Shown here piece after piece: positions 352-64,000 of a stretch of DNA of 64,000 bases. Positions within the stretch are counted from its first letter, which is position 1; each line of letters opens with the position of its first letter. The notes under the pieces were generated by a model that was not told the DNA's origin, made no database searches, and saw only the letters and a program-made list of their open reading frames with translations. Made by a program: the position numbers and the translations under genes. The stretch covers positions 110,850 to 174,849 of the forward strand of contig LDJB01000003.1 in NCBI GenBank assembly GCA_001028815.1, given 5' to 3'. The DNA is from Peptococcaceae bacterium 1109 (GTDB taxonomy: Bacteria > Bacillota > Limnochordia > Darwinibacteriales > Darwinibacteriaceae).

Positions 352-420
352 TTTGGCCACAGCCCTTCACCGCCTTTCGCGCCTTAGAAGATGGGGGGAG
401 AGAATCTCCCCCCGCTTAAC

Positions 421-1692: not shown

Positions 1693-1788
1693 TCTCCTTT
1701 CCTCCCTTTGAAGTTATGGCCAAAACCTATACTGAGCTGCGCTGAAGCTGTGTCTCCCTTCCCCCACCACCTCCCTTTAGTGTCAAAC

Positions 1789-4680: not shown

Positions 4681-4694
4681 GGGCCGGCACCTCC

Positions 4695-23728: not shown

Positions 23729-23772
23729 TAGGGATAACAAGAGACCCAGCCCAGAAAGGACCGGGACGTAAT

Positions 23773-24360: not shown

Positions 24361-24362
24361 CC

Positions 24363-25058: not shown

Positions 25059-27280
25059 CGTTTTTCCAAGAAATCCATGAGCGTTTGGTAAATGTCCCCG
25101 GTCCCCGCCTCGCCATTACTGAGGATGGTAACCTCTTGCTCCAGGGCTGGGATCACGCTTGTCACCATGCTGGATCCAGGCCCTGTGCCCCACACTGTGT
25201 AGGACGTTAAGCCGTTCCTAGTCCTGCTGGCAAAGGGCCGCAGAACTTCTGGCAAAACCGCCTCTGAGACCAAATCTCCGCCCAGCAATGCCCACCAGAA
25301 CCTATGCAGATCGTCCGCGGTGGTATACGCTCCGCCGCTTGGCCCCCCTTGCAGGGGAACAGCCAGTATGTTTTCCACCCACTCAGAGCCTGAGGACAGA
25401 TACCCCACCGCAGTGCCTTCTGGCAGTTGATTGAGAAGATAGTAGCCTGTGCTTGCCATTCCCACTGGAGTGAAAATGCGGGCCGCTGCAAACGCGGCAA
25501 AAGGCTCTTCCGCATGTGCTTCCACAATCCGCCCCACAAGTTCCAGGCGCTGCTCAAGGCCTTCCCCATCGGAGAAGAGCTCCGCTATGGTAAGGTCCCT
25601 TGCCCAAGGAGGAAGCCCATCCCTTAAGCAGCACAGGGCTGGGGTGTTAAATGTAAACTTCCCTTCATCGGCCAGGAGTGCTGCGGCCACCGCAGTGAAA
25701 ATCCGGCTCCCCGAGGCCATGTTAAAGCGAGTATTGGACGTGTTGGGCACTGCAAACCTCCGGCTCGCGAAGCCGTAGGTTCCGGAGAAGATTTGCTCTT
25801 GGCCTTCCCACACCTTGATCACACCGGCAAAGGCTGGGTCGATCTGGGCTTCGCTAAAGCCCGCCACCCCCAGGCGTTCCACCGTATTTGGGCTGAGCTC
25901 AAACACTTCGTCAAGGCGCGGGACAATCGTCCTCAACCCCAGCTTGTCTGTAATGTCCTGGGCAAATTCCCGGGCCACTGACTTCTCCCCATGGACTACA
26001 AAGACTCTTTTCACGTCTTTGAACTCACCCAACCAGCCCATGAGGGCCTCCCGGTCGCCGTGCGCGGAAAACCCGGTGATGGTATGGATTTTTGCCCGCA
26101 CCCGCACCTGCTCTCCGTGGATACGGACCTCCTTCGCTCCATCTTGCAGCTGCCTTCCTAAGGTCCCTTCAGCTTGGTAGCCGATGAGGAGCACCGCTGC
26201 CTCGGGACGCCAAAGGTTGTGCCTGAGATGGTGCTTGATGCGTCCCGCATCGCACATTCCGCTGGCAGAAATGATAATAGCTCCGCCCCGGATATCATTG
26301 AGGCGCTTAGAGTCTTCCACGCTTTGGGTGTAGTGCAGCCCCGCAAACTCGAAGGGTGAACGGCCTTCCTCAAGCATAGTGCGGGTTTCGAAGTCAAAGA
26401 AGGCCTGGTGCTTTCGGAAGATCTCCGTGGCCGAGGTGGCTAGGGGGCTATCCACATAAACCTTCACAGGGGGGATTTCCCCTACATCTAACAGCTTCCG
26501 CAGTTCATGGAGGAGGTCCTGGGTGCGGCCTAAGGCGAAGGCGGGGATCAAAAGGTTCCCACCTCTGGCCATGGTCTCCCGCACAACCTCTGCCAGGCGC
26601 TCTCGGCGGTTTTCCCGGTCTTGGTGCAGGCGAGTACCGTAGGTGGACTCTACAATCACATAATCCGCATCTTGAAGGAAGGTGGGATCCTGGACGATGG
26701 GCTGATCGAGGTTTCCCATATCCCCAGAGAACACTAACTTCACCGTGCCCCCCTCTTCAGTGACCCACACTTCCACCAAGGCCGCACCGAGGATATGGCC
26801 TGCATCCCGCATGCGGATGGCCAGGCCAGGGAGGATTTCCACCCTCTCATCGTAGACCATGGGCCGGAACTGCGCTAGAGTCTTGTCCGCATCTGCCTTC
26901 GTGTAGATGGGCTCTAGAAGGGGCTTGCCCTGCCTGCTTAAGCGGCGGTTCTTCCGCTCAACCTCCGCTTCTTGGATGTAGGCAGAATCAGGCAGCATGA
27001 TCGTGCACAAGTCCGCGGTAGCATCCGTTGCATAAATAGGCCCGGAAAACCCGTGCTTGACGAGCTTGGGCAGAAGGCCGCTGTGATCAATGTGGGCATG
27101 GGTTAAGATCACCGCATCGATTTCTAGCGGGTTAAACGGAAAGCTGCCGTAGTTGCGCTCCTTCAGTTCCCGGGGCCCATGGAACATCCCACAGTCCACC
27201 AACACCTGATAAATCCCGAACCGCAGCAGAAAACAGGAACCGCTCACTGTCTCTGCCGCGCCTAAGAACTCCAGCTGCAC
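25055..27280 (-). CDS. beta-CASP metallo-beta-lactamase-fold ribonuclease (N-terminal ~470 aa) fused to a C-terminal degenerate serine-beta-lactamase-like domain (~270 aa)
   Basis: N-terminal part: ILTHAHIDHSGLLP (HxHxDH) and a beta-CASP layout ending GFSAHGD. C-terminal part aligns to class-C beta-lactamase/PBP-like proteins, but SxxK is SGSR and the KTG box is WGTG. One continuous 741-aa frame. Confidence 0.7.
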   Translation of the reverse strand: MQLEFLGAAETVSGSCFLLRFGIYQVLVDCGMFHGPRELKERNYGSFPFNPLEIDAVILTHAHIDHSGLLPKLVKHGFSGPIYATDATADLCTIMLPDSAYIQEAEVERKNRRLSRQGKPLLEPIYTKADADKTLAQFRPMVYDERVEILPGLAIRMRDAGHILGAALVEVWVTEEGGTVKLVFSGDMGNLDQPIVQDPTFLQDADYVIVESTYGTRLHQDRENRRERLAEVVRETMARGGNLLIPAFALGRTQDLLHELRKLLDVGEIPPVKVYVDSPLATSATEIFRKHQAFFDFETRTMLEEGRSPFEFAGLHYTQSVEDSKRLNDIRGGAIIISASGMCDAGRIKHHLRHNLWRPEAAVLLIGYQAEGTLGRQLQDGAKEVRIHGEQVRVRAKIHTITGFSAHGDREALMGWLGEFKDVKRVFVVHGEKSVAREFAQDITDKLGLRTIVPRLDEVFELSPNTVERLGVAGFSEAQIDPAFAGVIKVWEGQEQIFSGTYGFASRRFAVPNTSNTRFNMASGSRIFTAVAAALLADEGKFTFNTPALCCLRDGLPPWARDLTIAELFSDGEGLEQRLELVGRIVEAHAEEPFAAFAAARIFTPVGMASTGYYLLNQLPEGTAVGYLSSGSEWVENILAVPLQGGPSGGAYTTADDLHRFWWALLGGDLVSEAVLPEVLRPFASRTRNGLTSYTVWGTGPGSSMVTSVIPALEQEVTILSNGEAGTGDIYQTLMDFLEKR

Positions 27281-27353
27281 CCCAACACCTTCTTTATCTA
27301 AGTGTTAAGTAATGGTTCGACCCCCGACAGTGGGATTCCTGTTGTAAAAACCC

Positions 27354-29117
27354 TTATTTCGCTAACGCTTCCTTGAGTGCAAAGGCAAGAAAGCCTGCAC
27401 AGGTCGCAAAGGCTGCCCCGGTCATGCATTCCCCCGTCTCCTCGTGGACGCTTTCGCAGGCGATACCATTATCCAGCTCGGTCCTGCTGAGGTGGCGAAG
27501 GGCTTGCTCCGTGTTGCCGCTCAAGAGGCTGTTGCAGATGGACAACACCCATGGGTGGGGCGCATGCGCACAGCCGATTTCCGCGATGGGCTTGCCCGCG
27601 AAGGAGTACTTGTACTCCGGATCGCGAATCACCGCCACTGTGTTCCGATAGATCTCATCGTAAGCGCTGCAGAACCCATACCACGGCAGAAGCAAGAGGC
27701 TCCCCGGAGGTTCGTCGTAGATGTCCCACGCCCCCTCCAGATCAACTGACCAAGCGAAGACCTTCTTTCCATTGTACACCTTCACGCACTGCTGGTAGAT
27801 GGCATCCTTCACTCGCTGGGCTTCTTCGAGCAGGGGGAGGCCGTAGAGTTCCTGCAGGTCGGTGAGGATCCGCCACACCAAGACGTTATCGTAGGTGAGG
27901 TACTTGTAGGTGTGCATATCGTCGGTGGGCTGGAGGAAGGTTTCGTAAAGGTGGGTTCCTGGGTGCCTCTTAGTCTTAAGGATCCTGAGGATGCGCTCCA
28001 CTCCCCTGCGCACATGGGCCTCCTCCAAAATGATGCGATCCCCCGTCCTGTCCACATAGCGCTTCAAAGCGATAATGGGGGCACACAGCTCATCCAGCTC
28101 AAATCCAGGTTCCAGCACCGTTCCATCAATAAACCTACTGTGAATCCCCACGTTCTTGATCTGCCTGGTAAATGTGTAGTCAAGCATTTCCCTAGCATAC
28201 TCTGGGTCCGCCATCAAGATGGCAGGAAAGCTCCACAGCAAGCTGTCCCGGTCCCAGTAGGCTGCGGAAACGTAGTAGCGGGGGCTCCTGGAGGTAACTA
28301 GGCAGAATTCTTCTGTATCCAAGGTAATGCCTGAGCCAAAGAAGAAGCTAAAGAACATATTGAGATTGAGGAGCTCCTGGAGGTGCTCATGGCCAACCCT
28401 TTGGATGCGCTGGGCCAGCCAGCGCTGGGTCTTGGCATACTCCTCTGCCCATCCCTGGCGAAGCATCTCTTTTGCAGCCGTGCTGGCAGCTACTTCTTCG
28501 TACCCCACACCCCAGTACACATCCAAGGTGGCCTCCTCGCCTGGAGCTAGATGGACCGTGCGGGTGATCTCAAACCGGATGCTGTCGTCCTGGCCGTGGC
28601 TGTACTTCCACTCTGCCTTCTCTGCCATGGGTGCCAGGGAAAACAGGGGAAGCCCGGTGCGAAAATCCATGACGAAGGCGTGGTTCCAACCGCTTGCGTA
28701 GGCGTGCTTTTCACCTTTAACAGGCTTGTTTTCATTCACTGCGTGCCAAACTTCCCCAAAACACCCCTCAAAGCCCAAGCAGACCTCCACAGGGTCACAA
28801 GCCCTCGCTGTTAAGCGGTAGATAAAGCCCCGCTCGCCTAAGGGTGCTAAGATGCACCCTTCGAAGGCGACGCCCTGGCCAGGCCCGGAGAAGCGTGGAA
28901 TCCAGTATTGGTCCCTATCCCAGTTGAGTTCAGCAAAATCCACAGGCTGGCCGTCCACCGCGGCCATGGGCCTGAGGAGGGGTTCCTCCCCCGCTCCCTT
29001 CACATGCAGCATACCCTTGGCCCGCATGTGGAGGAAGGTGAGCCCCTCAAGAGCGCCATCCTCCCTGATGGTTGGCAGGGAGATAAACTCGTTGCTCGTT
29101 ACGTAATACTTGGTCAT
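27354..29117 (-). CDS. (alpha/alpha)6-barrel glycoside hydrolase, GH15-like (glucoamylase/trehalase/GH125-type WxRDS fold)
   Basis: 587 aa with an N-terminal beta-rich region followed by AAYWDRDSLLW (WxRDS motif of GH15-type six-hairpin glycosidases). Start overlaps the GH31 gene by 4 bp. Family assignment is tentative. Confidence 0.45.
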   Translation of the reverse strand: MTKYYVTSNEFISLPTIREDGALEGLTFLHMRAKGMLHVKGAGEEPLLRPMAAVDGQPVDFAELNWDRDQYWIPRFSGPGQGVAFEGCILAPLGERGFIYRLTARACDPVEVCLGFEGCFGEVWHAVNENKPVKGEKHAYASGWNHAFVMDFRTGLPLFSLAPMAEKAEWKYSHGQDDSIRFEITRTVHLAPGEEATLDVYWGVGYEEVAASTAAKEMLRQGWAEEYAKTQRWLAQRIQRVGHEHLQELLNLNMFFSFFFGSGITLDTEEFCLVTSRSPRYYVSAAYWDRDSLLWSFPAILMADPEYAREMLDYTFTRQIKNVGIHSRFIDGTVLEPGFELDELCAPIIALKRYVDRTGDRIILEEAHVRRGVERILRILKTKRHPGTHLYETFLQPTDDMHTYKYLTYDNVLVWRILTDLQELYGLPLLEEAQRVKDAIYQQCVKVYNGKKVFAWSVDLEGAWDIYDEPPGSLLLLPWYGFCSAYDEIYRNTVAVIRDPEYKYSFAGKPIAEIGCAHAPHPWVLSICNSLLSGNTEQALRHLSRTELDNGIACESVHEETGECMTGAAFATCAGFLAFALKEALAK

Positions 29118-31729
29118 TTTCTTTCCTCCACTCTCATGAGCGTGCCTGCAAGGCCTCTGCCACAGAGCTGCACCGCATCGCCTGGAGTGAGAGCATCCAC
29201 CACCAGGACTTCCTTCACCGGCCCTGTACCTCTCACCGTGCCCCCATTGTATTCTAAGTCATTGCCTAGATCGTCTTGGAACCCCAGGGCATCGCCCCCA
29301 AAGCACAGGAAGGCCAAGATTTCGTACCCATCTAGCTTGTTGGATACGCCGCCCTGAGGCGAGCAGGCCCCCATGATGCGGGCTTTGTTTAGGTGGACAG
29401 GCAAGACTGCTCCGTCACGCACAAACAGGGGGACTTGGTGAAGTGGGCAGGTATAGTCGATCTCCCTTCCTCCGGTGAACACTTCTCCGGTGAAGAAATC
29501 GTGCCACGTGCCCTGGGGAAGGTACACCCGCCGCCCTTCTGCCCCTTCCTCCAGCACAGGGGCGACTAGCAGATCCCTGCCGAACATGTACTGGTCGTGC
29601 ACGGTCCATGCCCGGGAGTCCTCGGGGTAATCGATGGCTAGGTGAGCCATGAGGGGCCGAGCGGACTGGGCGCAGTGGACTGCTTCCTGGTAGATATATG
29701 GGAGGAGGTTCATGCGCAGGTTGGCAAAGAGCCGGTACACCTCCATGACTTCTGGATCGTTATACAGATCAGCAATGTTCCACGGGCTGCGGTCGTTGAC
29801 CCACCGGGCACGGTCGGTGTAGAAGAACTGGCCGCTCCGGGGCTCTGCGTGCCACTGCATCACAGGGCTGAGCGCGGCGAAGGCGGTGGAGCGCTTGTAA
29901 AGCTCGGGGCTGGGGAAATCCCCCGCGAATCCGGCCATATCAAAGCTCCAGAAGGGGATGCCGGACAGGCCTGCGGAAAGGCCAGCTGTCATCTGAGCCC
30001 GCAGTTCACTCCATGTGCTTCTCTGGTCCCCTGCCCAATGGATGGGCACGGTTTGGGCCCCTGTATGGCCTGCCCGGGAGAAGGTGATGCCGTCCTCTAG
30101 GTGCTCCCGGAGAAAGCCGTGGTAAGCCCTAATGTACTGCATGGGGTACTCATTGTGGGCAGTGTCCCCTAATTGGCCGTCGTACGTTTTTGTGGTATCG
30201 CCAAAGAGGAACTCTCCCCCGTCGGTCTTAAAACCCTTTACCCCTAGGTCTTTCACAAGGTAGGCTCGCTTATCAAACCACCACTTAACCGCCTCAGGAT
30301 TGGTAAAATCCAGGAGCAAACTGCCCTTAAACCAATTCTCTGGGATGCGGTAAGGAGTGCCGTCTTCGTTTAGAACGCAGTATCCCATCTTGATGGCATA
30401 GGCCTCATCGTCTTGAAGCTGCTGGCACGCATCGGGGGTGTACTTAATCACAGGGATCTGCCATAAAACAAGGTTTAAGCCCGCCTTTCGCACCGCCTCA
30501 GCCATGAGTTTGGGATCGGGCCACTTCCCACCTTCAGGGAAGTTGAAATCTGCCAAGCGGATGGGCCGATCTTGGGGAAGGGGCTCATACTGGGCATCGT
30601 TGAAGATGTAGAAGGTATGTTCATCGCTCCATGCCTCGAGCACCATGGCAGTGGCAGGCAGTTCATATTGCTCTAGGGCCTTAAGCTGCTCTAAGGTTTC
30701 TTCTTGAGTGTTCCAGCCGTTCGCGGAGATCCAAAGCCCTAAAGCCCACTTCGGGGGAAGCACAGCTTTGCCTGTGAGGCGGTGTAGATCTTTTAGCAGG
30801 GACTGGGGGCTGCCGAAAAGCCACCATTCCTCATACAGCACACCTTGGGGGGCGGTGCGGCACTCTAGGGTAAGCCCTGAGGCCCCATGGTAGGTGATCA
30901 AGCGCTTACTGCTGGAATACCAACCGAAGCCCAGGTCTGTAAGGAAAAATGGGATGGGGATGTAGCTGTACTCTCCTTGGCTGGTGAACTTCTCCACAAC
31001 CGAAAGGACAGTGCTGAGGCCCTTTTGGTCCACTTGGTTGAAGCGCTCCCCTAGCCCGAAGATGTGCCTGACAGGGGTTTGTACGTGGTACTTAATCTCC
31101 CGCACCGACCCGTCTTTAGCGCACAAGAGCTCTAGCTCCGCAAAATCCACCTGCACAAGTGCTGCGCCTTCCCGCCGTACTTCCCATCCTGCACCGGTAA
31201 TCTCCAGGGTCTCTGCAGGGGAAAGCTGAACCTTCACTGACTCCACAGCTTCCCCTGGCGCTGCCCCATCCTTTTCCAATACCCGAATGCGAAGGCCGTT
31301 ATCCCAGCTGAACTCCACAGCTGTTTCGGGGAAAATAGCCCAAGCGCTGTTCTCTCCCTGGTACAACAGGGCAGGCGCGCTAAGCCCCCTGCGCTCGACG
31401 ACGGAGAAGTTGTAATACGGAGTGACTTCCACCTCAGTACTGCCTTCCACAGAAAAGCGGTAGCTCACATCTGCCAACTCGTGAAAGGGCCCCAGGGAGA
31501 AAGAGAAGTAGTGGGAATCCTGGGCGGCCCCTTGGAAAGCCTCCCCCGGGACGGGGGGCATGGGGCTGCCGTCCTGTCTCCACTCAAGGACAGCCCGCAC
31601 TGGGCTCTCCGCCCCTTCTACCTTAATTTGGACTACTACCTCTTCACCTTTTAGGGGCATGTAGGGCCTGCGCTGAAAGGCGCAGTCCTGGATGGGTTCT
31701 AGCCCAGGGGGTACGTGCTTGATCTGCAT
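29114..31729 (-). CDS. glycoside hydrolase family 31 (alpha-glucosidase / alpha-xylosidase-like)
   Basis: 871 aa. GVKGFKTDGGEF (GH31 nucleophile region, compare GxDGxWxDMNE) and IPFWSFDMAGF (GH31 acid/base region). Confidence 0.7.
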   Translation of the reverse strand: MQIKHVPPGLEPIQDCAFQRRPYMPLKGEEVVVQIKVEGAESPVRAVLEWRQDGSPMPPVPGEAFQGAAQDSHYFSFSLGPFHELADVSYRFSVEGSTEVEVTPYYNFSVVERRGLSAPALLYQGENSAWAIFPETAVEFSWDNGLRIRVLEKDGAAPGEAVESVKVQLSPAETLEITGAGWEVRREGAALVQVDFAELELLCAKDGSVREIKYHVQTPVRHIFGLGERFNQVDQKGLSTVLSVVEKFTSQGEYSYIPIPFFLTDLGFGWYSSSKRLITYHGASGLTLECRTAPQGVLYEEWWLFGSPQSLLKDLHRLTGKAVLPPKWALGLWISANGWNTQEETLEQLKALEQYELPATAMVLEAWSDEHTFYIFNDAQYEPLPQDRPIRLADFNFPEGGKWPDPKLMAEAVRKAGLNLVLWQIPVIKYTPDACQQLQDDEAYAIKMGYCVLNEDGTPYRIPENWFKGSLLLDFTNPEAVKWWFDKRAYLVKDLGVKGFKTDGGEFLFGDTTKTYDGQLGDTAHNEYPMQYIRAYHGFLREHLEDGITFSRAGHTGAQTVPIHWAGDQRSTWSELRAQMTAGLSAGLSGIPFWSFDMAGFAGDFPSPELYKRSTAFAALSPVMQWHAEPRSGQFFYTDRARWVNDRSPWNIADLYNDPEVMEVYRLFANLRMNLLPYIYQEAVHCAQSARPLMAHLAIDYPEDSRAWTVHDQYMFGRDLLVAPVLEEGAEGRRVYLPQGTWHDFFTGEVFTGGREIDYTCPLHQVPLFVRDGAVLPVHLNKARIMGACSPQGGVSNKLDGYEILAFLCFGGDALGFQDDLGNDLEYNGGTVRGTGPVKEVLVVDALTPGDAVQLCGRGLAGTLMRVEERK

Positions 31730-33109: not shown

Positions 33110-33937
33110 TTAGCCTTTAATCCCCCCTATACTCAGACCTTGTTCAAAGTGTTTTTGAGCAAAGAAATACAGGATCAGGATGGGCAGCATGGAGATAAGC
33201 CCTCCAGCCATCAGCAAGTTGTACTGGTTGCCATACTGGGTGTTGAGCAAGCTTAAGCCCACTGGCAAGGTCATCTTGGCACGGTCGGTGAGGACAATTA
33301 GGGGCCAGAGATAGTCATTCCAAGCACCCATAAAGGTGATTACGCTTAAAGCTGATAAGACCGGTTTGCTTAAAGGAACAATGATCCGGACATAAATTGC
33401 GGCGTAACCGGCTCCGTCAATCAAAGCTGCTTCTGATAAAGCATCGGGGATGCCCCGCATGTTCTGGCGGAGGAGGAAGACAGCAAAGGCGTTGAAGACA
33501 GAAGGGGCTAAAATCCCCAGGAAGGAGTTGAGCAGGCCGAGGTAGCGCAGGACTAGGAAGTTGGGGATCATGGTTACCTGGCCCGGGATCATCATGGTCA
33601 TAAGAAACAATGTGAAGAGCGTATCTCGCCCCCTAAAGGGGATCTTGGCAAAGACATACGCGGCCATGGACGAGGACAGAACTACAATGGCTGTGGTGGC
33701 ACTAGCCACAAACAAGCTGTTAAAGATGGCCCTCCCAAAGGGAAACAGGGAGAACAACCGCTCATACGCATCGAAACTCACAGGGCTTGGAATCCACTGC
33801 ACCGGCAGGACCAACAATGCCCCACGGGCCTTAAGGGATGTGGATACCATCCAGAAGAACGGCATAAGGTTGAAGAACGCAATTATGCTGGCAAAGAGGT
33901 AAAACCCCAACCGCCGGATTTGCTCTCTACGACTCAT
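33110..33937 (-). CDS. carbohydrate ABC transporter permease (MalG/UgpE-like)
   Basis: 275 aa, six TM segments with the EAAxIDGA signature (EAALIDGAGY). Confidence 0.85.
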   Translation of the reverse strand: MSRREQIRRLGFYLFASIIAFFNLMPFFWMVSTSLKARGALLVLPVQWIPSPVSFDAYERLFSLFPFGRAIFNSLFVASATTAIVVLSSSMAAYVFAKIPFRGRDTLFTLFLMTMMIPGQVTMIPNFLVLRYLGLLNSFLGILAPSVFNAFAVFLLRQNMRGIPDALSEAALIDGAGYAAIYVRIIVPLSKPVLSALSVITFMGAWNDYLWPLIVLTDRAKMTLPVGLSLLNTQYGNQYNLLMAGGLISMLPILILYFFAQKHFEQGLSIGGIKG

Positions 33938-34796
33938 AGTGGACCCACCTTTTCTGGAGCTGGAGCTGGATCAACGTTGCCGCGAAGATAAACACGAACA
34001 GAATCCAGGAGTAGCTTGCAGCATAGCCCATCTTGTAATACCGGAATGCGTAGTTGTAAATCCGCTCCACAAACACCTGGGTGGCGCCGCCTGGGCCCCC
34101 TTCGGTCATTACCATAACTTGGGGAAAGAGCTGGAACGAGTTGATTACCGAAATTATGGTCACGAAGAACAGGGTGGGCGTGACCAAGGGGACAGTAATC
34201 CTGGTAAGCTTCTTAAACCAGTTGGCCCCGTCAATTTCCGCAGCCTCATAGTAGCTGGTGTCAATCCCCTGCAGCCCGGCGAGGATAATCAGGGCAAAGT
34301 AGCCCACGTCCTTCCACACACTTGCCAGAACAATCCCCGGCATGGCCCAGCTCTTGCTGTGCAGCCAGCTCGGGCCTGTGATTCCGGCCATGCCCAAGAT
34401 GGCATTGATCGCCCCGTACCTCGGATTGAGCAGCCACTTCCACAGAAGGGCCGCGGCAACCCACGACGTTAAGACAGGGACATAGTAGATAGTGCGGTAA
34501 AGGCCCACCCCTGGGTACTTGTTGTTAAGCAGCACCGCAACCAAGAGCGATGCCCCGAGGATCAAGGGGATATACAAGGCTATAAAGTACAAAGTGTTGC
34601 CCAACACCCGGGGGAACTCTTCGTTCTGGATAATATCCCTGAAGTTTTTCAGCCAGTGGAACTTGGGCGCGCCGCCGATCACATCCCACTCTGTCAAGCT
34701 GAGGTATAGTGATGTGCCAATGGGAATGATAGAGAACAGCAGCAGCCCCACCAAGCTGGGGAGGAGAAAGAAGAAGATGGTTAAGCGCCGGTTCAT
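33927..34796 (-). CDS. carbohydrate ABC transporter permease (MalF/UgpA-like); in this assembly read through from the upstream ROK regulator
   Basis: Starts MNRRLTIFFFLLPSLVGLLLF at ATG 34796 and contains EAAEIDGANWF. No stop codon separates it from the regulator frame; a C6 run at 34804-34809 sits at the junction. Confidence 0.75.
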   Translation of the reverse strand: MNRRLTIFFFLLPSLVGLLLFSIIPIGTSLYLSLTEWDVIGGAPKFHWLKNFRDIIQNEEFPRVLGNTLYFIALYIPLILGASLLVAVLLNNKYPGVGLYRTIYYVPVLTSWVAAALLWKWLLNPRYGAINAILGMAGITGPSWLHSKSWAMPGIVLASVWKDVGYFALIILAGLQGIDTSYYEAAEIDGANWFKKLTRITVPLVTPTLFFVTIISVINSFQLFPQVMVMTEGGPGGATQVFVERIYNYAFRYYKMGYAASYSWILFVFIFAATLIQLQLQKRWVHYES

Positions 34797-36026
34797 GCCT
34801 AATCCCCCCGGTTTAAAAATTGGTGCCCGGTAGATCTGGTTTACAACCAAGGCACAGGTTCCAATCAGCCACACATCCTCCCCGGTGCTGCACACCTTTA
34901 GCTGGACAGGCTGCTGTTTCTTGGCGAAAAAGTTAGTGGCTAGTTCCAGTTCTATGCCTCGCAAAAGGTGCTTGCCTCCGCGAATCCCCTCACCCCCCAA
35001 AATGATGGCTGCAGGGTTGAAAAGATTGACCAAGTTCTTCAGGCCAATCCCGAGGTTTTGGCCTTGTTTATAGATTATGCTCTGCGCGCAGCGGTCCCCC
35101 TGCTCCGCAGCTTCATACACATCATTGATGGTCAGGGAATCAGAATCCCCCAGGATAGTCGGGACTCCTAAGGCGATGTGGCGCTTTACTTCGCTTAAAG
35201 CAAAGTGGTCGGACGCGTACATTTCCAAGCATCCCCGCTGCCCGCAGTAACAAGGGGCTCCCTCATGCTGGATCACAAGGTGCCCAAACTCACCTGCCCC
35301 GCCGTGTTCCCCCCGGAAAACCTGGCCATCGATGACGATACCCAGGCCAACGCCTACCCCCACCGTCACCCCAAGGAAACTGCTGTGGTGGGGCACCATC
35401 CCTGTCCAAACTTGCGCGAGGGCAAAGGTGTTGGCATCGTTCTCCACGATTACAGGCACATCAAAGTGGCGGCTAACTGGGGTGAAGTCAAACTCATCCC
35501 AGGCTAAGATGGGACTGTATAAAACCTTGCCATGGGCCTGGTCCACCAAGCCTGAAACGGCGATGCCGATACCTACCAGCGGCGCACTGTTTACATCGCC
35601 TTCCAAAAGGCCGCTGATGTTATCTATAAGAAGCTGATTGAGGGCGGCACTATCTGCCTCAGGGGGAAGCTCTGCTGCAGCCTTCTGCTGAATCTTGCCT
35701 AAGAGGTTCATCCGGCTGAACAAAATGCGGGTTGGTTCGATTTTGATACCCACCACTGCGGCAACAGATCCGTTAAACTCCAGCATGGTTGGTTTGCGCC
35801 CACCACTAGACTCCCCTGCCCCCGTCTCCACAACCAGGCCATCATCCATAAGCTCATCGATGATATACGTGATAGTAGACAGCCCCAGCTCCGTATAGCG
35901 GGCAAGGTCCGCCCGGGACATGGGCCCGTGCAACCTCAAATGGTTGATCACTAAGATGCGGTTGTGCTCCTTAATTCGCTTCCGGTTGCCACCGCGCAGC
36001 TGCCTCACAATGCACCATCCGTCCAT
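34797..36026 (-). CDS. ROK-family transcriptional regulator (HTH + sugar-kinase-like domain), fused in frame to the downstream permease in this assembly
   Basis: HTH MSRADLARYTELGLSTITYIIDELMDDG and ROK zinc motif CYCGQRGCLEMY. With one C fewer in the C6 run the frame ends ...APIFKPGD-TAG and the permease ATG follows 2 nt later. Confidence 0.75.
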
Positions 36027-56608: not shown

Positions 56609-58302
56609 CTGACGCCCTCCTCTCCGGTAATGCGCTGCGCGCTAGGGCGGATCTGGGCGTGCATGTGAAAAATGCGTCCCACTGTGTAAAAGCCCCGCAC
56701 GATGTTAAAGCTTTCCTCTGAGACAATGTCCATGTCCTGTGGCTCCCCTAGGCCCACTTCCCTTGCGTACTCTCGGAGCTTGCCTAAGGCACGGTCCCTT
56801 GCCTTGCGCTGGTCAAAGAGGGCCGGCCGCTCGATCTCTTGGAAGATTCCCATCTCCGGTATACTCAAACTGCGCAGGGCTGTATCGGCATAGAGAGTAA
56901 GGCCGATGGTGGGCCGGGCCGCGGCTGCGCCAATCGCGTTCGCACTCGCGCTGTGGGGCAGGATCTCCAAAGGCAGCTGGAGCGCCTCTCCCACTGGCCT
57001 CATGAAGGCTGGGGCTGGTGTGCCCAGGCAGGTAATGACCTCCGGCCTCAGGTGCGGGGTTTCTAAGAACTCCGCGAGGGTGTAGACGGGCTGGCCTTCC
57101 AGCTCACCATAGAGCTTGTGGATGGCGGCGCACAATTGGCTGACGAAGGCGTTCACTACTCGCTCCGCGGCCGCCTCCCAGCTCAGCCCTGCTCGAGCCC
57201 CTAACTCCTTTAACGCTCCAACGGCCCGGGAACGATCCCCAAGGGATACCCTTCCCAAGGCGACTACTGCATCGGTTGGGGTGGGCCTTGTGCCGCCAAG
57301 GCAAACAGGGGAGCCTGCCCGGCTGGGGCCGATGCGAAACCTAGTGCCGCCTTCCTCGCTATCTATAATGTGGATCTCGCTATCCCCTCCAAGGCCTATG
57401 GACCGGGAGAGTATGGCAGGCACAGCAGTGGGATACCCCCCAATTACTGCTCCCTCCCGGGCATAAAGGGGCTGGCCTTGTACTATCACTGCGAGATCGG
57501 TGGTAGTACCGCCGATGTCCACAACCACCATGCTTTTCCCTTGATGGGACGTTAAGGCCAGGGCTGCCATGGTGCTGGCTGCGGGCCCAGATAAAATGCT
57601 TTCAATGGGGAGGCTGCGGGATTGGGCGAGGGTCATGGTGCCTCCATCGGCCTTGAGGATGCGCACACTCCCCAAGCCCTCACCAAGGCTCTCCACTGCA
57701 TCCGCGAACTTCCGCTGGGCCTTGGCCACCTGAGAGTTTAGGTGCGCGGTGACCACCCGCCGGGGAAAGCCCAAGCGGGGGGCGGCCTTATGGCCCACAG
57801 ATATGTGAGAGAATTTCAGCTTCCCATTATGTACAGCATCAAGGACAGCTTGCTCTAAACTGGGATTCCGCTGAGAGAATTTTCCAACTATGGCCAGGGC
57901 CTCTGCCCCGCCTCGCTGAGCTTCCCTCGCCGCGGCAGCAGCTTCCTTCGGCTCGCACTCTGCAACCACCCGGCCCCGGTGATCCACGTATCCCGGCAAA
58001 GGAAAAAGGGGAAAATCTAGGCCGTGGAGGCGCAGATCCACCCCTGGCCCGGGGATCACCACCGCGGCAGTGGCGGTTCCCCGCCCTTCCACGATGGTGT
58101 TGGTGGTGAGGGTCGTAGAGAGCTGCAGATTTACAGGGCCCTTTAGAGGACACGCTGCCTTCAGCTCATCTAATACCGCCTTAGTACTGGCCACCAGGTC
58201 CCCGTGGTCTGTGGGTACTTTGGCTACTGCTAAGACTCTGCCCTCGCCAATAACCGTGCCGTCGGTATTTGTTCCCCCAACATCGATCCCGATGGTATAC
58301 AC
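56605..58302 (-). CDS. hydantoinase/oxoprolinase-family protein (HyuA-like, ASKHA fold)
   Basis: MYTIGIDVGGTNTDG N-terminus and a second VVDIGGTTTD motif. GTG start at 58302 with GGAGGT 9 nt upstream, inside the 3' end of purD. Confidence 0.7.
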   Translation of the reverse strand: MYTIGIDVGGTNTDGTVIGEGRVLAVAKVPTDHGDLVASTKAVLDELKAACPLKGPVNLQLSTTLTTNTIVEGRGTATAAVVIPGPGVDLRLHGLDFPLFPLPGYVDHRGRVVAECEPKEAAAAAREAQRGGAEALAIVGKFSQRNPSLEQAVLDAVHNGKLKFSHISVGHKAAPRLGFPRRVVTAHLNSQVAKAQRKFADAVESLGEGLGSVRILKADGGTMTLAQSRSLPIESILSGPAASTMAALALTSHQGKSMVVVDIGGTTTDLAVIVQGQPLYAREGAVIGGYPTAVPAILSRSIGLGGDSEIHIIDSEEGGTRFRIGPSRAGSPVCLGGTRPTPTDAVVALGRVSLGDRSRAVGALKELGARAGLSWEAAAERVVNAFVSQLCAAIHKLYGELEGQPVYTLAEFLETPHLRPEVITCLGTPAPAFMRPVGEALQLPLEILPHSASANAIGAAAARPTIGLTLYADTALRSLSIPEMGIFQEIERPALFDQRKARDRALGKLREYAREVGLGEPQDMDIVSEESFNIVRGFYTVGRIFHMHAQIRPSAQRITGEEGVR

Positions 58303-59570
58303 AGAGTTCCGACCTCCAATCCCTTCAGCCCAATATCTGTGCGGTAGTGGGCTTGGGGAAAACTGATGCGCTCCACCAGGGCATAGGCCCGCTCTCGGGC
58401 AGTCCTAAGATCAGGCCCGAGCGCGCAAGCGCTGAGCACCCGCCCGCCGCTGCTGAGGAGCTGCCCGTCCTTGATGGTGGTCCCCCCGTGGAACACCATC
58501 TCGTAATCCTTCAGGGGCGGCACGGCTAGGGGAATCCCCTGGGCGTATTCTCCTGGATAGCCAGGAGCGGCCATCACAACGCATACCGCTGGGGAAGGGT
58601 CCCACTCAAGGGCCAACTCCTCAAGGCGCCCGTGGGCGCAGGCTTCCAGTACTGCCAGCAAGTCAGATCTGAGGCGAAGCATCAGGGCTTGAGCTTCTGG
58701 ATCTCCAAAGCGCACGTTAAACTCTAATACCTTGGGCCCTGCCGCGGTGATCATCAAGCCAACGAACAATACCCCTGTATAGGGAGTGCCCCGCCTGGCC
58801 ATGGCTTCAAGGAGGGGGCGGACAACTCGGGACAGCGTCTCCTCTTCTAGCTCCTTTGTCCAAAAAGGTGGCGGCGAGTAGGTACCCATACCACCCGTAT
58901 TGGGCCCTTGATCCCCATTGTAAGCCCGTTTGTGATCTTGAACTGCCCCAAGGGGGACAGCAGTGCCGCCGGCACAGAGGCAGAAGAAGCTCACTTCATA
59001 TCCTTCCAAGTATTCTTCAATGACGATCCGCCTCCCTGCCTCCCCCAGTGCCCAAAAGGCCGTATCCACCGCTTGGCACCCCTCCTCGTAGTCTCTAGCG
59101 ATAAACACTCCCTTCCCCGCGGCCAAGCCATCGGCTTTGATAACACAGGGATAGGCCGTGTTTTTGAGAAAGACCTTCGCTGCCTCCCCATCTCCAAATA
59201 CCCGCCACTGAGCTGTGGGGATCCCTGCCTCAGCCATAACTTCCTTCGCGAAGGCCTTACTGCACTCTAACTGGCTTGCGGCAAGGGTTGGGCCGAAAGC
59301 TGGGACCCCCGCGGCCTGAAGAGCGTCTACAAGGCCCATGCTCAGAGGTTCTTCCGAACCCACTACTACAAGGTTGATCCCTTCTGCTACAGCAAAGTCC
59401 ACTAAAGCGGAGATGTGGGTGTGGGAAAGGGAGACGCTCATTTCGGGCACGCCGCCGTTCCCAGGTGCCACCAGGACCGTGGGGCGCGCAGGGCTCTGCT
59501 GAAGCTTCCACGCCAAGGCGTGTTCTCGCGCCCCCTTTCCCACTACCAGCACCTTCTTGCGCATAAGCAT
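58230..59570 (-). CDS. purD: phosphoribosylamine--glycine ligase
   Basis: KVLVVGKGAREHALAWKL, ATP-grasp motifs, HYRTDIG near the C-terminus. Carries a ~30-aa C-terminal tail that overlaps the next gene by 73 bp. Confidence 0.9.
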   Translation of the reverse strand: MLMRKKVLVVGKGAREHALAWKLQQSPARPTVLVAPGNGGVPEMSVSLSHTHISALVDFAVAEGINLVVVGSEEPLSMGLVDALQAAGVPAFGPTLAASQLECSKAFAKEVMAEAGIPTAQWRVFGDGEAAKVFLKNTAYPCVIKADGLAAGKGVFIARDYEEGCQAVDTAFWALGEAGRRIVIEEYLEGYEVSFFCLCAGGTAVPLGAVQDHKRAYNGDQGPNTGGMGTYSPPPFWTKELEEETLSRVVRPLLEAMARRGTPYTGVLFVGLMITAAGPKVLEFNVRFGDPEAQALMLRLRSDLLAVLEACAHGRLEELALEWDPSPAVCVVMAAPGYPGEYAQGIPLAVPPLKDYEMVFHGGTTIKDGQLLSSGGRVLSACALGPDLRTARERAYALVERISFPQAHYRTDIGLKGLEVGTLCIPSGSMLGEQIPTARLLARAES

Positions 59571-59576
59571 CCTCCT

Positions 59577-61097
59577 TTAGTGCTTAAAGTGGCGCCTACC
59601 CGTGAACACCATGATGAGGCCTGCCTTGTCCGCCGCGGCAATTGACTCTTCATCCCGGATGGAACCGCCTGGTTGGATGATAGCCCTGATGCCCGCGGCA
59701 GCGGCAGCCTCCACAGTATCCGGGAAGGGGAAGAAGGCATCGGAGGCGAGGTATGCCCCTTTGGCCTGGGCGTCTGCTTGTTCGAGGGCGATTTCGGCTG
59801 CTCCCACCCGGTTCATCTGGCCTGCTCCTACTCCTAAAGCTTGGCCATTCTTCGCCACTACAATCGCGTTGGATTTGACGTGCTTCACCACTTTCCAGGC
59901 AAACTCTAGTTCCACCCAGTCCTCCGGGCTCGGAGCCTGAGCTGTTACAACCTGCCACGCCTCTCGGCTTGTTGTGCCCACATCCCAGTCTTGGACCAGG
60001 TAGCCTCCATCGATGGTACGGATCTGCTTGGCAGGGCGCCTAGCCCCTCCCATCTTGCCCACAGACAGGAGGCGGAGGTTTTTCTTTTGCTCAAAAACCG
60101 CCCGTGCCTCTAAAGTGAAACCTGGTGCCACAATCACTTCGAAAAAGTGTTTAGCCATTTCCTGGGCTGTGGCCCCGTCCACCACCTGGTTGCACGCGAC
60201 AATCCCGCCAAAGGCAGAGACTGGATCGCCTTGAAGGGCCCGTATGTAGGCCTCTTCCAGGGTATGCCCAACCGCGGCGCCGCACGGGTTGGTGTGCTTA
60301 ACGACAACGCACGCAGGAGCGTCAAACTCCTGAACTGCCGCCCACGCGGCATCAGAATCCATCCAATTGTTGTACGACAGCTCTTTCCCTTGGAGCTGCT
60401 GGCTGCTAGCAAGGGTCCCTTGGCTCTCGCCTACTCGGTAAAGGGCTGCTCGTTGCGAGGGGTTCTCCCCATAGCGCAGGTCTTGAACCTTCTCTGCATC
60501 TTCAAGAGCAAGGAGCTCTTCTTCGCCCAAATAGGCCGCGATTGCTTGGTCATATCGGGCGGTATGGGAAAAAGCTTCCCAGGCAAGGCGCCTGCGCAAA
60601 TCTTGAGGCACCTCCCCTCCCTCCCTAAGTTCGTCCAGGACAGGGCCGTACTGGGCAGGGTTCACAATCACTGTCACCCGCTCGAAGTTCTTCGCGGCGG
60701 CCCGGACCATGGTGGGCCCACCGATGTCGATCTGCTCCACCGCCTCCGCAAGGCAGGCTCCCTTGGCCACCGTTTCCTGGAACGGATAGAGGTTCACCGC
60801 CACCACATGGATCATCCCAATCCCGTGGGCAGCAAGTTCCCCCTCATGATCGGGGATGCCTCGGGCAAGGATGCCCCCGTGGATTTTGGGGTGAAGAGTC
60901 TTAACCCTGCCCCCGAGGATTTCGGGGAACCCTGTCACGTCACTGACAGGAGTGACGGGGACTCCCGCCTGTGTAAGCTCTTTGGCTGTGCCGCCGGTGG
61001 AGATAATCTCATAGCCCAGTTCATGAAGGCCTTGGGCAAATTCCACCACACCAGTTTTGTCCCACACACTGATCAACGCTCGCTTAGCCACGTGCAC
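59577..61097 (-). CDS. purH: bifunctional AICAR transformylase / IMP cyclohydrolase
   Basis: [41 protein letters not shown] is the canonical PurH N-terminus. 506 aa. Confidence 0.95.
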   Translation of the reverse strand: MHVAKRALISVWDKTGVVEFAQGLHELGYEIISTGGTAKELTQAGVPVTPVSDVTGFPEILGGRVKTLHPKIHGGILARGIPDHEGELAAHGIGMIHVVAVNLYPFQETVAKGACLAEAVEQIDIGGPTMVRAAAKNFERVTVIVNPAQYGPVLDELREGGEVPQDLRRRLAWEAFSHTARYDQAIAAYLGEEELLALEDAEKVQDLRYGENPSQRAALYRVGESQGTLASSQQLQGKELSYNNWMDSDAAWAAVQEFDAPACVVVKHTNPCGAAVGHTLEEAYIRALQGDPVSAFGGIVACNQVVDGATAQEMAKHFFEVIVAPGFTLEARAVFEQKKNLRLLSVGKMGGARRPAKQIRTIDGGYLVQDWDVGTTSREAWQVVTAQAPSPEDWVELEFAWKVVKHVKSNAIVVAKNGQALGVGAGQMNRVGAAEIALEQADAQAKGAYLASDAFFPFPDTVEAAAAAGIRAIIQPGGSIRDEESIAAADKAGLIMVFTGRRHFKH

Positions 61098-61683
61098 TTC
61101 TCCTTTCTGGCCTCTCCAGTCCCTCCGCCACTAGCTGAAGCGCCTTTGGATAGAGGCGGTGTTCCGCTTCCAGGATCCGCTCTGAGAGGCTCTCCAATGT
61201 ATCATGGGGGAGTACAGGAACTGCCTCCTGCGAGATAATGGGCCCACTGTCCACCCCTTCGTCCACGAAGTGGACAGTGCAGCCGCTCACCTTCACCCCA
61301 TAGGCTAGGGCTTGGCTCTGGGCATTAAGCCCAGGGAAAGCGGGGAGGAGTGAAGGATGGATGTTAAGGATGGGGCAGCCCAGTGCTTGAATAAACCCCG
61401 GGCTCAGAATTCGCAGATAACCCGCTAAGGCCACAATGTCTACTTCGAGCTCCTGCAGCCACCGGAGGATAGCTGCCTCGTGGGCCCTGCGGTTCTCGTA
61501 CTGCCGGGGCGGAAAAACGGCTGCGGGGATCCCAGCCGCTTCTGCCCTGGCTAAGGCTTGGGCTTCAGGCCGGTCTGAGGCCACCCCCACAATTTCCAAG
61601 GTGAGGGCCCCAGATCGCACTGCCTCAATGATTGCCTGGAGATTGCTGCCCCGCCCGGAAGCAAGGACTGCGAGGCGCTTCAT
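61084..61683 (-). CDS. purN: phosphoribosylglycinamide formyltransferase
   Basis: [15 protein letters not shown], the HxSLLP motif ([10 protein letters not shown]) and the conserved Asp region. Confidence 0.9.
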
Positions 61684-62690
61684 TTGTACCTCACTCCCTC
61701 CCCTGGCTCCACAGTGCCCAGCACCACTGGGGACTCCCCGGCCTCAGTCAGCGCTGCCCAAGCCGCGGGGCGCTCCTCTGGGCTTACAACCACCGCATAA
61801 CCGATCCCCATGTTGAAGGTGCGATACATCTCAGCGTCTGGGACCTGCCCGAGTTTTTGTATGAGGCGGAAAATGGGGGGCACGTCCCAGGCAGGCTGGA
61901 TAGTAAGGCCAAGCCCTGGAGGGAGTATCCGGGCGATGTTCTCTATAAGGCCCCCGCCGGTGATGTGGGCCATCCCTTTAACCCTCGCCTTACCTAAGAG
62001 CCCAAGGATGGGTTTGACGTATATCCGGGTGGGCCGCAGCAGAGTTTCACCTAAGGGTTCGCCCAGTTCCCTTACTACTGCCCTCAAGTCCTGCCCAGCA
62101 AACACCCGCCGTACCAAGGAGTACCCGTTGCTGTGCAATCCGCTTGAGGAAAGGCCGATCACCACATCCCCCGCAGCGATGCTGCTCCCATCGATAATAT
62201 CCTGGCGGTTAACCACACCCACAGCGAAGCCCGCCACATCATACTCTCCCGGCCGGTAAAAGCCAGGCATTTCCGCTGTTTCGCCCCCTAGAAGGGCGCA
62301 TCCCGCTTCCTTACAGCCTTGAGCCACCCCCTGCACCACTGCCGCGGCTTCGTCAGGGTTCAGCTTACCCACTGCCAGGTAATCTAAGAAAAACAGCGGC
62401 TCGGCCCCGTGGGTGAGGATGTCGTTGACACACATGGCCACAGCGTCGATACCAATGGTGTGGTGCTTGTTTAGGGAAAAGGCCAGCTTGAGTTTTGTCC
62501 CAACCCCATCTGCCCCAGAAACGAGCACTGGGTCAGGGTACTTTCTCAAGTCAAGCTGGAACATGCCGCCAAAACCGCCGATACCTCCCACCAACCCAGG
62601 GCGGGCCGTCTCCCTAACCAGAGGCTTGATAAGCTCCACAACCTTGTTCCCTGCGTCAATATCCACCCCGCTCTCCCGGTAGGTAAGGCT
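61680..62690 (-). CDS. purM: phosphoribosylformylglycinamidine cyclo-ligase (AIR synthetase) domain, read in frame with purF (no start or stop codon at the junction)
   Basis: [22 protein letters not shown] ... is the PurM N-terminus. It follows the PurF C-terminal [10 protein letters not shown] motif directly in the same 754-aa ORF. Confidence 0.8.
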
Positions 62691-64000
62691 CTTGGCCTCT
62701 TGGGCAGGGCACTGCCCCGTAAAGCATGCCATGCACACGGGCCTGTCCCCTAAAGCTCGCCGCAGGCCTCCTTCCGAGAGGTAGTGAAGGGAATCTGCAC
62801 CCACGAGCTCCCGGATCTCCTCCACGTCCAGGCGGCTGGCGATAAGGGTTTCCCGCTCGGTGGTATCCATCCCGTAAGGGCAGGGGTGGCGCACTGGGGG
62901 CGAGCTTACTAGGAGGTGTACCTCTGCAGCGCCAGCCCTTTTCACCAGCTCGATTAACTTGGAGCTGGTGGTTCCCCGCACAATGGAGTCGTCCACCATC
63001 ACTACCCTCTTCCCCTTGAGGAAACGTACATTGGCGTTGAGCTTGATCTTCACGGCCACTTCCCGCATGGCTTGGGTGGGTTGGATGAAGGTTCGCCCCA
63101 CGTAGCGGTTCTTCATTAGCCCTTCAGCAAAGGGTATTCCCGAGGCCTCCGCGTAGCCCAGGGCTGCCGCGGTACCTGAATCAGGAACGGGAATCACCAC
63201 GTCCGCCCCGATGGGGTGCTCCCGAAAAAGCTCCCTTCCCATTGCCGCCCGGCTTTCTCCCACGTTGAGTCCATCGATGGAGCTGTCAGGGCGGGCGAAA
63301 TAGACGTACTCAAAGGAGCACGGTGCCAAGGTGTGTGCCTGGGGCCCGCGGTAGGAGGTGAGCCCCGCTGGCCCGATGGCCACCACTTCTCCAGGAGCTA
63401 CGTCTCGGACAAACTCTGCTCCGATGGTATCCAGTGCACAGCTTTCAGAAGCTAGGCAGAAGAACTCTCCCAGCTTGCCGATGCACAGCGGCCTGATCCC
63501 ATGTGGGTCTCGCATGCCCACTACATAATCTTCCGTCATGAACACAATCCCATAGCCTCCCTGGAGCCTGCCCATGACATGCAGCGCGGCCTTAGGCATA
63601 CTCTCCCCAGTGCTTTGGGCCAAGAGGTGAATAACCAGCTCTCCATCACAGGTTGATTGAAAGACTGTCCCCCATCCCGCGAGCTCTGACCGGAGCTGAT
63701 CGCCATTTGCCAGCCTGCCGTTCATGGCCAGAGCAAGCATCCCCCGGCCGCTGTACACCACTAAGGGCTGGATGTTGGCCAGCTGAAATGACTCCCGAGT
63801 GGAATAGCGCACGTGGCCGAGGGCCATTACGGGGCGAGAACCGGGGAAGCTGGCCAAGGCCTGTAACTGATCGCCGCTAAACACCTCACTGACTAAACCC
63901 CCGAGCCTTGTGCACCTGAATTTGACGCCCATCGGACACAGCAATCCCGGCGCTTTCCTGCCCCCGGTGCTGGAGGGCGTAGAGCCCGTAGTAGGTGAGG
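62691..64000 (-). CDS. purF: amidophosphoribosyltransferase; 5' end beyond window, frameshifted near 63898-63908, 3' end fused to purM
   Basis: The frame entering from 64000 reads [37 protein letters not shown]-stop (stop at 63886-63888). The adjacent frame continues GLVSEVF ... through the PRTase and CMACFTG motifs. A C5 run at 63898-63902 sits at the junction. Confidence 0.75.

Follow-up and report, generated by a model that had tools for sequence, protein, structure and literature searches.

In the window, by which is meant the whole stretch of 64,000 nucleotides that was analysed, purF and purM, which in bacteria are usually separate genes, are joined in one reading frame. Judged from the comparison of assemblies, this fusion is genuine biology, and the locus is very probably a genuine bifunctional purF-purM gene which carries a frameshift lesion private to one dataset. 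The fusion is kept in more than 15 independent assemblies, which represent two species, under strong purifying selection. The host of the gene is an anaerobic-digester bacterium of the Limnochordia type (Bacillota).

The fused reading frame and its conservation

A single ORF of 754 amino acids on the minus strand (61680-63944 in the ORF listing) covers PurF and then PurM with no stop between them; its 5' end at TTG 63944 is a spurious extension by the listing. Both family models exceed their curated NCBIfam cut-offs: TIGR01134 (PurF) matches ORF residues 8-412 with 420.5 bits against a cut-off of 350, over profile positions 40-431 of 432, and TIGR00878 (PurM) matches residues 420-746 with 444 bits against a cut-off of 236.35, over positions 1-330 of 332. 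The first 39 positions of TIGR01134, which are absent from the ORF, are in the shifted 5' fragment and past the end of the window, and the first 68 nt of the gene, with the start codon and the catalytic Cys9, also lie outside the window, past its end. The full 60-residue ORF of the shifted fragment is visible in contig L106, which is 100% identical to the window. At the five-residue linker (62691-62705) a stop codon, an ATG, GTG or TTG start codon and a ribosome-binding site are all absent, and the other two frames contain no alternative start at the junction. The ORF, the profiles and the junction frames thus bear out the preliminary description of this DNA, in which purF and purM were reported to run on in one frame without stop, start or ribosome-binding site and to encode a protein of more than 750 residues, the length being 754 residues for the ORF in the window and 795 for the intact product.

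Coordinates in the window of the fused gene, its parts and the pur genes that follow it
Feature	Position	Strand	Remarks
5' fragment of the fused gene, in the other frame	63886..64000	-	codons 24-60 of the 60-residue product MSGKPREECGVF...VHKARGFSQ*, TGA 63886-63888
Extra base (plus-strand G, coding-strand C)	63903	.	adjoins the C5 run 63898-63902; missing in other conspecific assemblies spanning the site
Body of the fused purF-purM gene, 3' of the extra base	61680..63902	-	one frame to the stop TGA 61680-61682
PurF domain (Ntn glutaminase part and PRTase part)	62709..63902	-	TIGR01134 40-431; B. subtilis PurF 1AO0 residues 1-448
PurF C-terminal cysteines C445/C448 (795-aa numbering) of the [4Fe-4S] site	62706..62735	-	end of the conserved PurF core
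Linker AQEAK, 5 residues	62691..62705	-	AAEPH in the sister species, equal length
PurM (AIR synthetase) domain, ending GEGVRYK	61683..62690	-	TIGR00878 1-330/332; PurM 2Z01 residues 6-342/348
purN	61084..61683	-	ATG overlaps the stop of the fused gene (ATGA)
purH	59577..61091	-	8-nt overlap with purN
purD, last pur gene of the operon	58230..59564	-	

The operon has the order purE-purS-purQ-purL-[purF-purM]-purN-purH-purD, and the overlap between the purN start codon and the stop codon of the fused gene is an arrangement expected for translational coupling. A purine riboswitch lies 5' of the operon in the same-species contig L001; an Rfam search of the window gave no match.

The preliminary description had held that the fusion needed checking against the pur operons of relatives, where the orthologues might all prove to be separate genes. 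In this comparison the ORFs of both the conspecifics and the sister species are fused. At least 8 further conspecific assemblies contain an unbroken ORF of 795 or 797 codons at 99.8% nucleotide identity, and intact copies occur in JGI 3300002898 and 3300002392, in GCA_025563055.1, GCA_050952325.1 and GCA_012837505.1, and in Logan assemblies SRR35946692, SRR35946981, SRR31061295 and SRR35947026. The sister species, represented by 22 contigs, has a 795-codon ORF with a linker of equal length, at 74% nucleotide and 82% amino acid identity. Between L001 and L003 pS is 0.68, and dN/dS is 0.053 for the PurF half and 0.060 for the PurM half; bifunctionality is predicted from dN/dS values of 0.05-0.06 in both halves together with the predicted folds.

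The intact product of 795 residues consists of an 8-residue propeptide (MSGKPREE), PurF, the flexible linker and a full PurM. In both L106 and P0001 the propeptide is followed by CGVFGI, and Cys9, which aligns to residue 1 of mature 1AO0, is by this alignment the N-terminal nucleophile of a PurF of the B. subtilis type. The catalytic and Fe-S residues are unchanged across 42 fused proteins, in all of which C250, C396, C445 and C448, which we take to be the [4Fe-4S] ligands by homology to B. subtilis PurF, and the PRPP motif DDSIVRGTT (D359-T367) are invariant. An AlphaFold model has a mean pLDDT of 86.7, with low confidence limited to residues 1-7, 90-93, 318-329 and the linker (458-461), and its pTM of 0.57 is as expected if two well-folded domains are connected by a free hinge.

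Residues 9-456 of the fusion align to mature residues 1-448 of B. subtilis PurF (1AO0, 1GPH) with E = 1e-133, and the two proteins have in common a propeptide before the nucleophile Cys, four Fe-S cysteines and a motif of 13 residues. The propeptide of B. subtilis PurF has 11 residues, whereas that of the fusion has 8, and in place of the final 11-17 residues and stop codon of the B. subtilis protein the fusion has the linker into PurM. Residues 462-794 align to residues 6-342 of 348 in the stand-alone PurM 2Z01 with E = 1e-119; unlike stand-alone PurM (2Z01, 1CLI), the PurM of the fusion has no start codon or ribosome-binding site of its own, lacks the initiator Met and the rest of the first ~5 residues, and has its N-terminus tethered to PurF.

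The extra base and alternative readings of the locus

The frame which enters the window at 64000 ends at the TGA at 63886-63888 and the main ORF goes on as GLVSEVF in the adjacent frame, so that translation of the frames confirms what had been described. Deletion of one G from the coding-strand G5 run (plus-strand C5, 63898-63902) yields VHKARGLVSEVF and a 795-codon ORF, in agreement with the earlier proposal that removal of one nucleotide from the CCCCC/TTT stretch restores the frame. In comparison with the conspecifics, however, the extra base adjoins the run and is not within it, and removal of either a G of the run or the coding-strand C restores the frame; the 5' part of purF is shifted, as had been proposed, but the change is not strictly one of homopolymer length.

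The conspecific assemblies outside the window's dataset which span the site all read GCTGGGGGTTT, with GCTGGGGG in frame. An uninterrupted PurF frame is found in all of them, but not in the window or in the SRR2990408x contigs. The shifted allele (GCTCGGGGG) is confined to the window and to Logan contigs of runs SRR29904084/85/87 that match it at 100% identity, and the extra base is the sole gap in 8321 bases aligned against L001. On this comparison, the extra base at 63903 is a lesion private to one run series and not a property of the gene, and the earlier caution that the frameshift needed verification before being counted as biology was well placed. Scans of metagenome contigs for the site (using a variable gap or a shared flank) returned 0 matches and missed even the intact allele that JGI samples are known to contain.

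Two further insertions of this kind occur in this dataset alone: one at 22932 splits rmuC, and one at ~34810 makes a false fusion between ROK and permease genes. All three are plus-strand G insertions beside or in C/G runs. A systematic error in base calling or consensus, to which we assign a roughly even chance, is slightly preferred over a real mutation as the source of the extra base. The competing reading, to which we give somewhat less than an even chance, is that the insertion is real and recent, in which case purF-purM would be a fresh pseudogene that leaves a 60-residue fragment, and the strain would have neither PurF nor PurM and would live on purines salvaged in the digester. This reading can draw on the presence of the same sequence in Logan contigs of 7.9, 38.7 and 171 kb from three runs, which are separate k-mer assemblies, on the SNPs that mark the strain as distinct (two substitutions in purN, for example), on the fact that the inserted C is not a simple extension of the run, and on the relaxed selection that purine-rich surroundings would be likely to produce. 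The three runs, however, form one series in which a platform bias may be shared, and the remaining 2.2 kb past the shift is without secondary decay, and the rest of the operon is unbroken. Three frameshifting insertions in the about 55 kb compared are moreover implausible at 99.8% identity to intact relatives, this rate would extrapolate to more than 100 broken genes per genome, and their common form as plus-strand G insertions at C/G runs also argues against mutation.

It is very unlikely that an internal start within the fused ORF yields free PurM besides the fusion protein. In the window GGGAGAGCGGG lies 5' of a GTG (the Val of GVDIDAGN), and PurM-only products of 328 or 350 residues appear in some annotations, but such annotations are not evidence of translation, the Shine-Dalgarno-like stretch is lost in the sister species (where the sequence is CGGCAGAGCGGCGTG), and starts of this kind would either cut conserved N-terminal residues of PurM or begin inside the Fe-S motif. 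Still less credible is programmed +1 ribosomal frameshifting at CGG GGG U, which would act as a regulatory device and give the full-length protein. A slip after GGG would yield exactly VHKARGLVSEVF, and the G-rich Shine-Dalgarno-like stretch with a UGA three codons downstream loosely resembles prfB; the shift, however, is absent from other strains and species, at the slip position the A site holds no slow or stop codon, and two other genes of the dataset have the same type of insertion. Programmed frameshifting is rejected for its lack of conservation and of a pause codon. The probability that the continuity of purF and purM is itself a sequencing artefact, in which an indel erased the stop and start codons that separated two ordinary genes, is negligible: the window does contain one such artefact, where one extra base at ~34810 fuses ROK to an ABC permease, but the purF-purM junction is identical in all conspecific assemblies spanning the gene, which come from four sources, its length is kept in a species with only 74% nucleotide identity, and the other frames at the junction contain no stop and start, observations by which this reading is refuted.

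Other fused and unfused genes

The architecture was not known to the preliminary description, and a literature search found no paper describing a PurF-PurM fusion and none that names the SRR runs or the assemblies, but about 40 further fused clusters from Bacillota MAGs are already in the sequence databases, mostly labelled just "amidophosphoribosyltransferase". In three other lineages the fused ORF was confirmed in the DNA itself, and in each of them it occupies the same place in the operon. The fusions of other Bacillota and Clostridia MAGs (HHT73673.1; P0003-P0041) share the domain order and the slot between purL and purN with the window protein, but they are only 42-56% identical to it, and their linkers, of 6-61 residues and often of low complexity, are of other sequence types. 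In P0042, a candidate for a further fused lineage, an in-frame TGA falls exactly on the junction; its genome has 29% GC, and its purE also contains in-frame TGAs. A representative search at 50% identity leaves nearly all fused proteins under the single representative P0011; it also contains long proteins, known by their PurM match alone, in which this match lies far from the N-terminus, some of them with a second matched stretch.

The PurF half of the window protein shares 63-66% identity with unfused Desulfitobacteriaceae proteins and at most 55% with other fused proteins; for the PurM half the values are 64-66% with unfused and at most 62% with other fused proteins. The linker has no relation to those of the other fused groups. 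Because both halves are nearer to unfused Desulfitobacteriaceae proteins, a separate origin is likely; from these identities and one NJ tree, for which sampling is biased, the window fusion is probably independent of the other fused lineages. It very probably arose when adjacent, tightly packed purF and purM genes lost the purF tail, the stop codon, the spacer and the purM start codon. A scan of GTDB genomes with P0001 found at least 80 loci; among the matches listed, which do not include the window's own species, 72 species loci hold both genes, and all 72 have a stop between purF and purM, with none fused.

Proposed function and significance

The PurF part would convert PRPP and glutamine to phosphoribosylamine in step 1 of the pathway, and the PurM part would convert FGAM to AIR with ATP in step 5. 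Steps 1 and 5 are not consecutive, and the fusion therefore cannot directly channel a product. Its most likely effect would be to fix the expression of the two enzymes at 1:1 and to build a larger assembly in which PurF oligomers are tied to the PurM dimer. A more far-reaching reading, which we consider rather unlikely, is that the fusion is a recurrent bacterial "Rosetta stone" which places the step-1 and step-5 enzymes together in an assembly for purine synthesis, so that a defined complex of PurF oligomer and PurM dimer, and not a neutral merger, would organise or co-regulate the pathway. This would be the pairing of PPAT and the AIRS-containing GART that has been proposed for the core of the eukaryotic purinosome.

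Multifunctional purine enzymes such as GART, PAICS and ATIC are well known in eukaryotes. The domain order is GARS-AIRS-GART in trifunctional GART and GARS-AIRS in yeast Ade5,7, and as in these proteins the PurM (AIRS) domain of the fusion is joined covalently to an enzyme which catalyses a non-adjacent step of the same pathway. In contrast to them, its N-terminally placed partner is PurF (step 1) instead of PurD or PurN, which are encoded by separate genes here; the fusion also belongs to a bacterium and has a very short linker.

The single-base insertions of this dataset disrupt purF-purM and rmuC and also generate the false ROK-permease fusion, and the fusions and pseudogenes of the dataset need to be cross-checked against conspecific assemblies. 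Public annotation of the fused gene is inconsistent, in that it appears either as an "amidophosphoribosyltransferase" of 795 residues or as a PurM of 328 or 350 residues with the PurF half unannotated, and for this reason pathway reconstructions may wrongly count purM or purF as missing. The PurF-PurM fusion is a new domain combination, of which no description was found in searchable papers, and, being under strong purifying selection, it offers a natural and compact test of whether bacteria physically organise the early and middle steps of purine synthesis.

The fused reading frame and its two halves

The minus-strand purF-purM gene of the window encodes two complete domains whose key residues are conserved and which are both under selection, and it is co-transcribed within the pur operon. 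The preliminary description had read purF and purM as one continuous frame, and this reading is borne out by the single ORF listed in the table: there is neither a stop nor a start codon in frame at the purF/purM junction, which reads TGC ATG GCA TGC TTT ACG GGG CAG TGC CCT / GCC CAA GAG GCC AAG / AGC CTT ACC TAC CGG, and neither of the other two frames provides an alternative there. The window end cuts off the gene's first 68 nt. By profile matching, ORF residues 8-412 correspond to the PurF model TIGR01134, an equivalog (420.5 bits, cut-off 350), and residues 420-746 to the PurM model TIGR00878 (444 bits, cut-off 236).

If the broken frame in the window dataset is excepted, both halves are ordinary for their families, the PurF half belonging to the Fe-S type known from B. 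subtilis and the PurM half being a standard PurM. In the numbering of the intact 795-aa protein, residues 9-456 align with residues 1-448 of mature B. subtilis PurF (1AO0) and residues 462-794 with residues 6-342 of PurM (2Z01); no solved chain spanning both halves was found. The nucleophile Cys9, the Fe-S cysteines at 250, 396, 445 and 448, and a 13-residue motif are invariant in the fused proteins (42 of 42). An AlphaFold model computed from the 42-sequence alignment has a mean pLDDT of 86.7, with low confidence at four places only, namely the propeptide (1-7), a loop (90-93), residues 318-329, which are presumably the flexible PRTase loop, and the linker (458-461); its pTM of 0.57 is what would be expected of two well-folded domains connected by a free hinge.

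Coordinates in the window of the fused gene and of the two other genes with an extra base
Feature	Position	Site of extra base	Strand	Description
Fused purF-purM ORF	61680-63944	63903	minus	single 754-codon ORF in the ORF listing
rmuC, split	22510-23728	22932-22937	plus	G5 to G6, ORFs of 193 and 270 aa (398 aa elsewhere)
ROK + ABC permease ORF	33927-36026	~34810	minus	699 aa, one extra base

Occurrence and origin of the fusion

With the 754-aa product as query, a protein search yielded 42 clusters with both PurF and PurM Pfam domains, including a 795-aa same-species version at 99% identity (P0001) and a protein at 82% identity (P0002), whose contigs share the operon purE-purS-purQ-purL-[fused gene]-purN-purH-purD. 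Queries with window proteins brought up the same species, at 99.8% nucleotide identity, from JGI samples 3300002898 and 3300002392, from NCBI assemblies GCA_025563055.1, GCA_050952325.1 ("Limnochordia bacterium") and GCA_012837505.1 ("Bacillota bacterium"), from several Logan assemblies, which are made run by run, and from an ENA anaerobic-digester assembly whose contig spans only the rmuC-exoD region, without purF. In every other same-species assembly that spans the gene the ORF is unbroken, with 795 or 797 codons by choice of start. A sister species, represented by 22 contigs at 74% nucleotide identity, carries an ORF of 795 codons whose linker, AAEPH, is as long as that of the window. Because pS between the two species is 0.68, so that synonymous sites are close to saturation, and dN/dS is 0.053 in the PurF half and 0.060 in the PurM half, both halves have long been kept functional as one ORF. 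The comparison with the pur operons of relatives that had been proposed earlier finds the fused gene, not separate purF and purM, in conspecifics and sister species alike, and the fusion is genuine.

Intact fused ORFs were also found at the DNA level in three other lineages, each between purL and purN. The linkers of the fused clusters range from 6 to 61 residues and are of several unrelated types, and the PurM initiator Met (in RMTYK) is still present in some. The fusion occurs in none of the 72 GTDB species loci that hold both genes among the matches listed (at least 80 loci, without the window's own species); in all 72 a PurF tail of 6-20 residues is followed by a stop, which the purM start either overlaps or follows at a short distance. 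Unfused proteins are closer to both window halves than any other fused protein: identity to Desulfitobacteriaceae-like unfused proteins is 63-66% for the PurF half and 64-66% for the PurM half, against at most 55% and 62%, respectively, to the best other fused lineage, and a neighbour-joining tree places the window lineage as sister of the unfused group. The most economical reading, of moderate strength given biased sampling and a single tree, is a repeated merging of adjacent purF and purM genes; in the window lineage a small deletion would have removed the PurF tail, stop, spacer and purM start.

In one database "fusion", P0042 (L115 6001-8466, GCA_978017255.1, 29% GC), the boundary of PurF and PurM is marked precisely by one in-frame TGA, after which comes an ATG. 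This may be a genetic-code artefact; either code 4 is in use in this organism or the fusion is false. The adjacent purE contains two TGAs in frame and lacks TGG. On another contig of a fused lineage (L117 7769-8211, JGI 3300053716), purN is called as fragments of 74 and 66 aa, which may reflect an assembly frameshift.

Extra bases in the window

The further claim that the 5' part of purF is frameshifted also stands, since the frame entering the window at 64000 stops at TGA 63886-63888 while the long ORF goes on as GLVSEVF one frame over. The alignment of the window to L001, a same-species contig with the intact gene, covers 8321 bases and contains 13 substitutions and a single gap, which falls at the frameshift site. 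On the coding strand the window reads AAGGCTCGGGGGTTTAGTC there, versus AAGGCTGGGGGTTTAGTC in all other conspecific assemblies spanning the site, and the extra base is therefore plus-strand G63903, which borders the C5 run at 63898-63902. Removal of one nucleotide does restore the frame, as had been proposed, but by comparison with conspecifics the extra base adjoins the C5 run at which the lesion had been placed. The repair suggested earlier, in which one G is dropped to give ARG, is equally possible because the sister species reads GCC CGG GGA (ARG).

When about 55 kb of the window was compared with other strains for length differences, only two further single-base differences were found, both insertions in the window dataset, and each of the three insertions is a plus-strand G that lies in a C5-6 or G5 run or borders one. 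RmuC is intact (397-401 aa) in six other assemblies of the species, and the G6 insertion recurs in Logan contigs of runs SRR29904085 and SRR29904087. At the ROK site the coding strand reads AAACCGGGGGG in the window versus AAACGGGGGG; other strains have APIFKRGD and a stop, then GC, then ATG, and the window is without the ROK stop, so that the ROK frame runs on into the downstream ABC permease; this ROK-permease ORF, unlike purF-purM, is a false fusion.

There is about an even chance that the base at 63903 is a systematic sequencing artefact. That it is instead a real, recent lesion is given slightly less than an even chance: the window is 100% identical, this base included, to Logan contigs assembled separately from SRR29904084, SRR29904085 and SRR29904087 (one run series, on which a literature search found no paper), which makes the base reproducible over three runs, and the base inserted in purF does not lengthen a run. 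At the rate of three frameshifting insertions in 55 kb, however, each genome would have more than 100 broken genes, yet identity to intact relatives is 99.8%; moreover, the three are uniform in type and strand, and beyond the shift the gene shows no additional decay. Scans of a metagenome contig collection for the site matched neither allele, the intact one known from JGI samples included. Recoding at the site is very improbable. Under either the artefact or the mutation reading the frameshift, in itself ordinary, is no property of the purF-purM gene family.

Elsewhere, at about 43368, the window has ACAC where GCA_025563055.1 has AC, in the stretch that separates a short-chain dehydrogenase gene from the ORF after it. 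A contig of GCA_900198705.1 (L099) joins window positions 1-4970 to 23198-30266, 18 kb apart, by either rearrangement or misassembly, with RmuC truncated to 153 aa. The plus strand of the window holds 117 C runs and 66 G runs of at least five bases, which fits the location of most genes on the minus strand.

Annotation, operon context and proposed function

Public annotation of the gene is inconsistent. The PurF-PurM architecture is already in public databases, mostly named by its first domain or as PurM alone; in GCA_050952325.1 an intact 795-codon ORF (L105 2501-4885) is annotated as a 328-aa PurM only, with the PurF half uncalled, and KLU39485.1 is a 350-aa PurM called from a Met inside the CMAC Fe-S motif. 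No description of the fusion was found in the searchable literature. The window protein differs from GART, Ade5,7 and PAICS in that the partner of its PurM is PurF.

A purine riboswitch (RF00167, 91.5 bits) lies upstream of purE, in front of the pur operon with the fused gene, in the same-species contig (L001 2166-2267, outside the window); within window positions 1-64000 no hit attains the gathering score of an Rfam family. The fused gene and purN overlap by their stop and start codons (ATGA). From what is known of the two families, propeptide removal would expose Cys9, the PurF part would convert PRPP and glutamine to phosphoribosylamine, and the PurM part would form AIR from FGAM and ATP. 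The two reactions are steps 1 and 5 of the pathway, and there is therefore no direct transfer of an intermediate between the two active sites. A more ambitious reading, in which PurF-PurM would constitute a bacterial purine metabolon, is doubtful. The likely benefit of the fusion is a fixed stoichiometry together with co-assembly, in which PurM dimers would hold PurF oligomers, an arrangement that would echo the eukaryotic, AIRS-containing GART.
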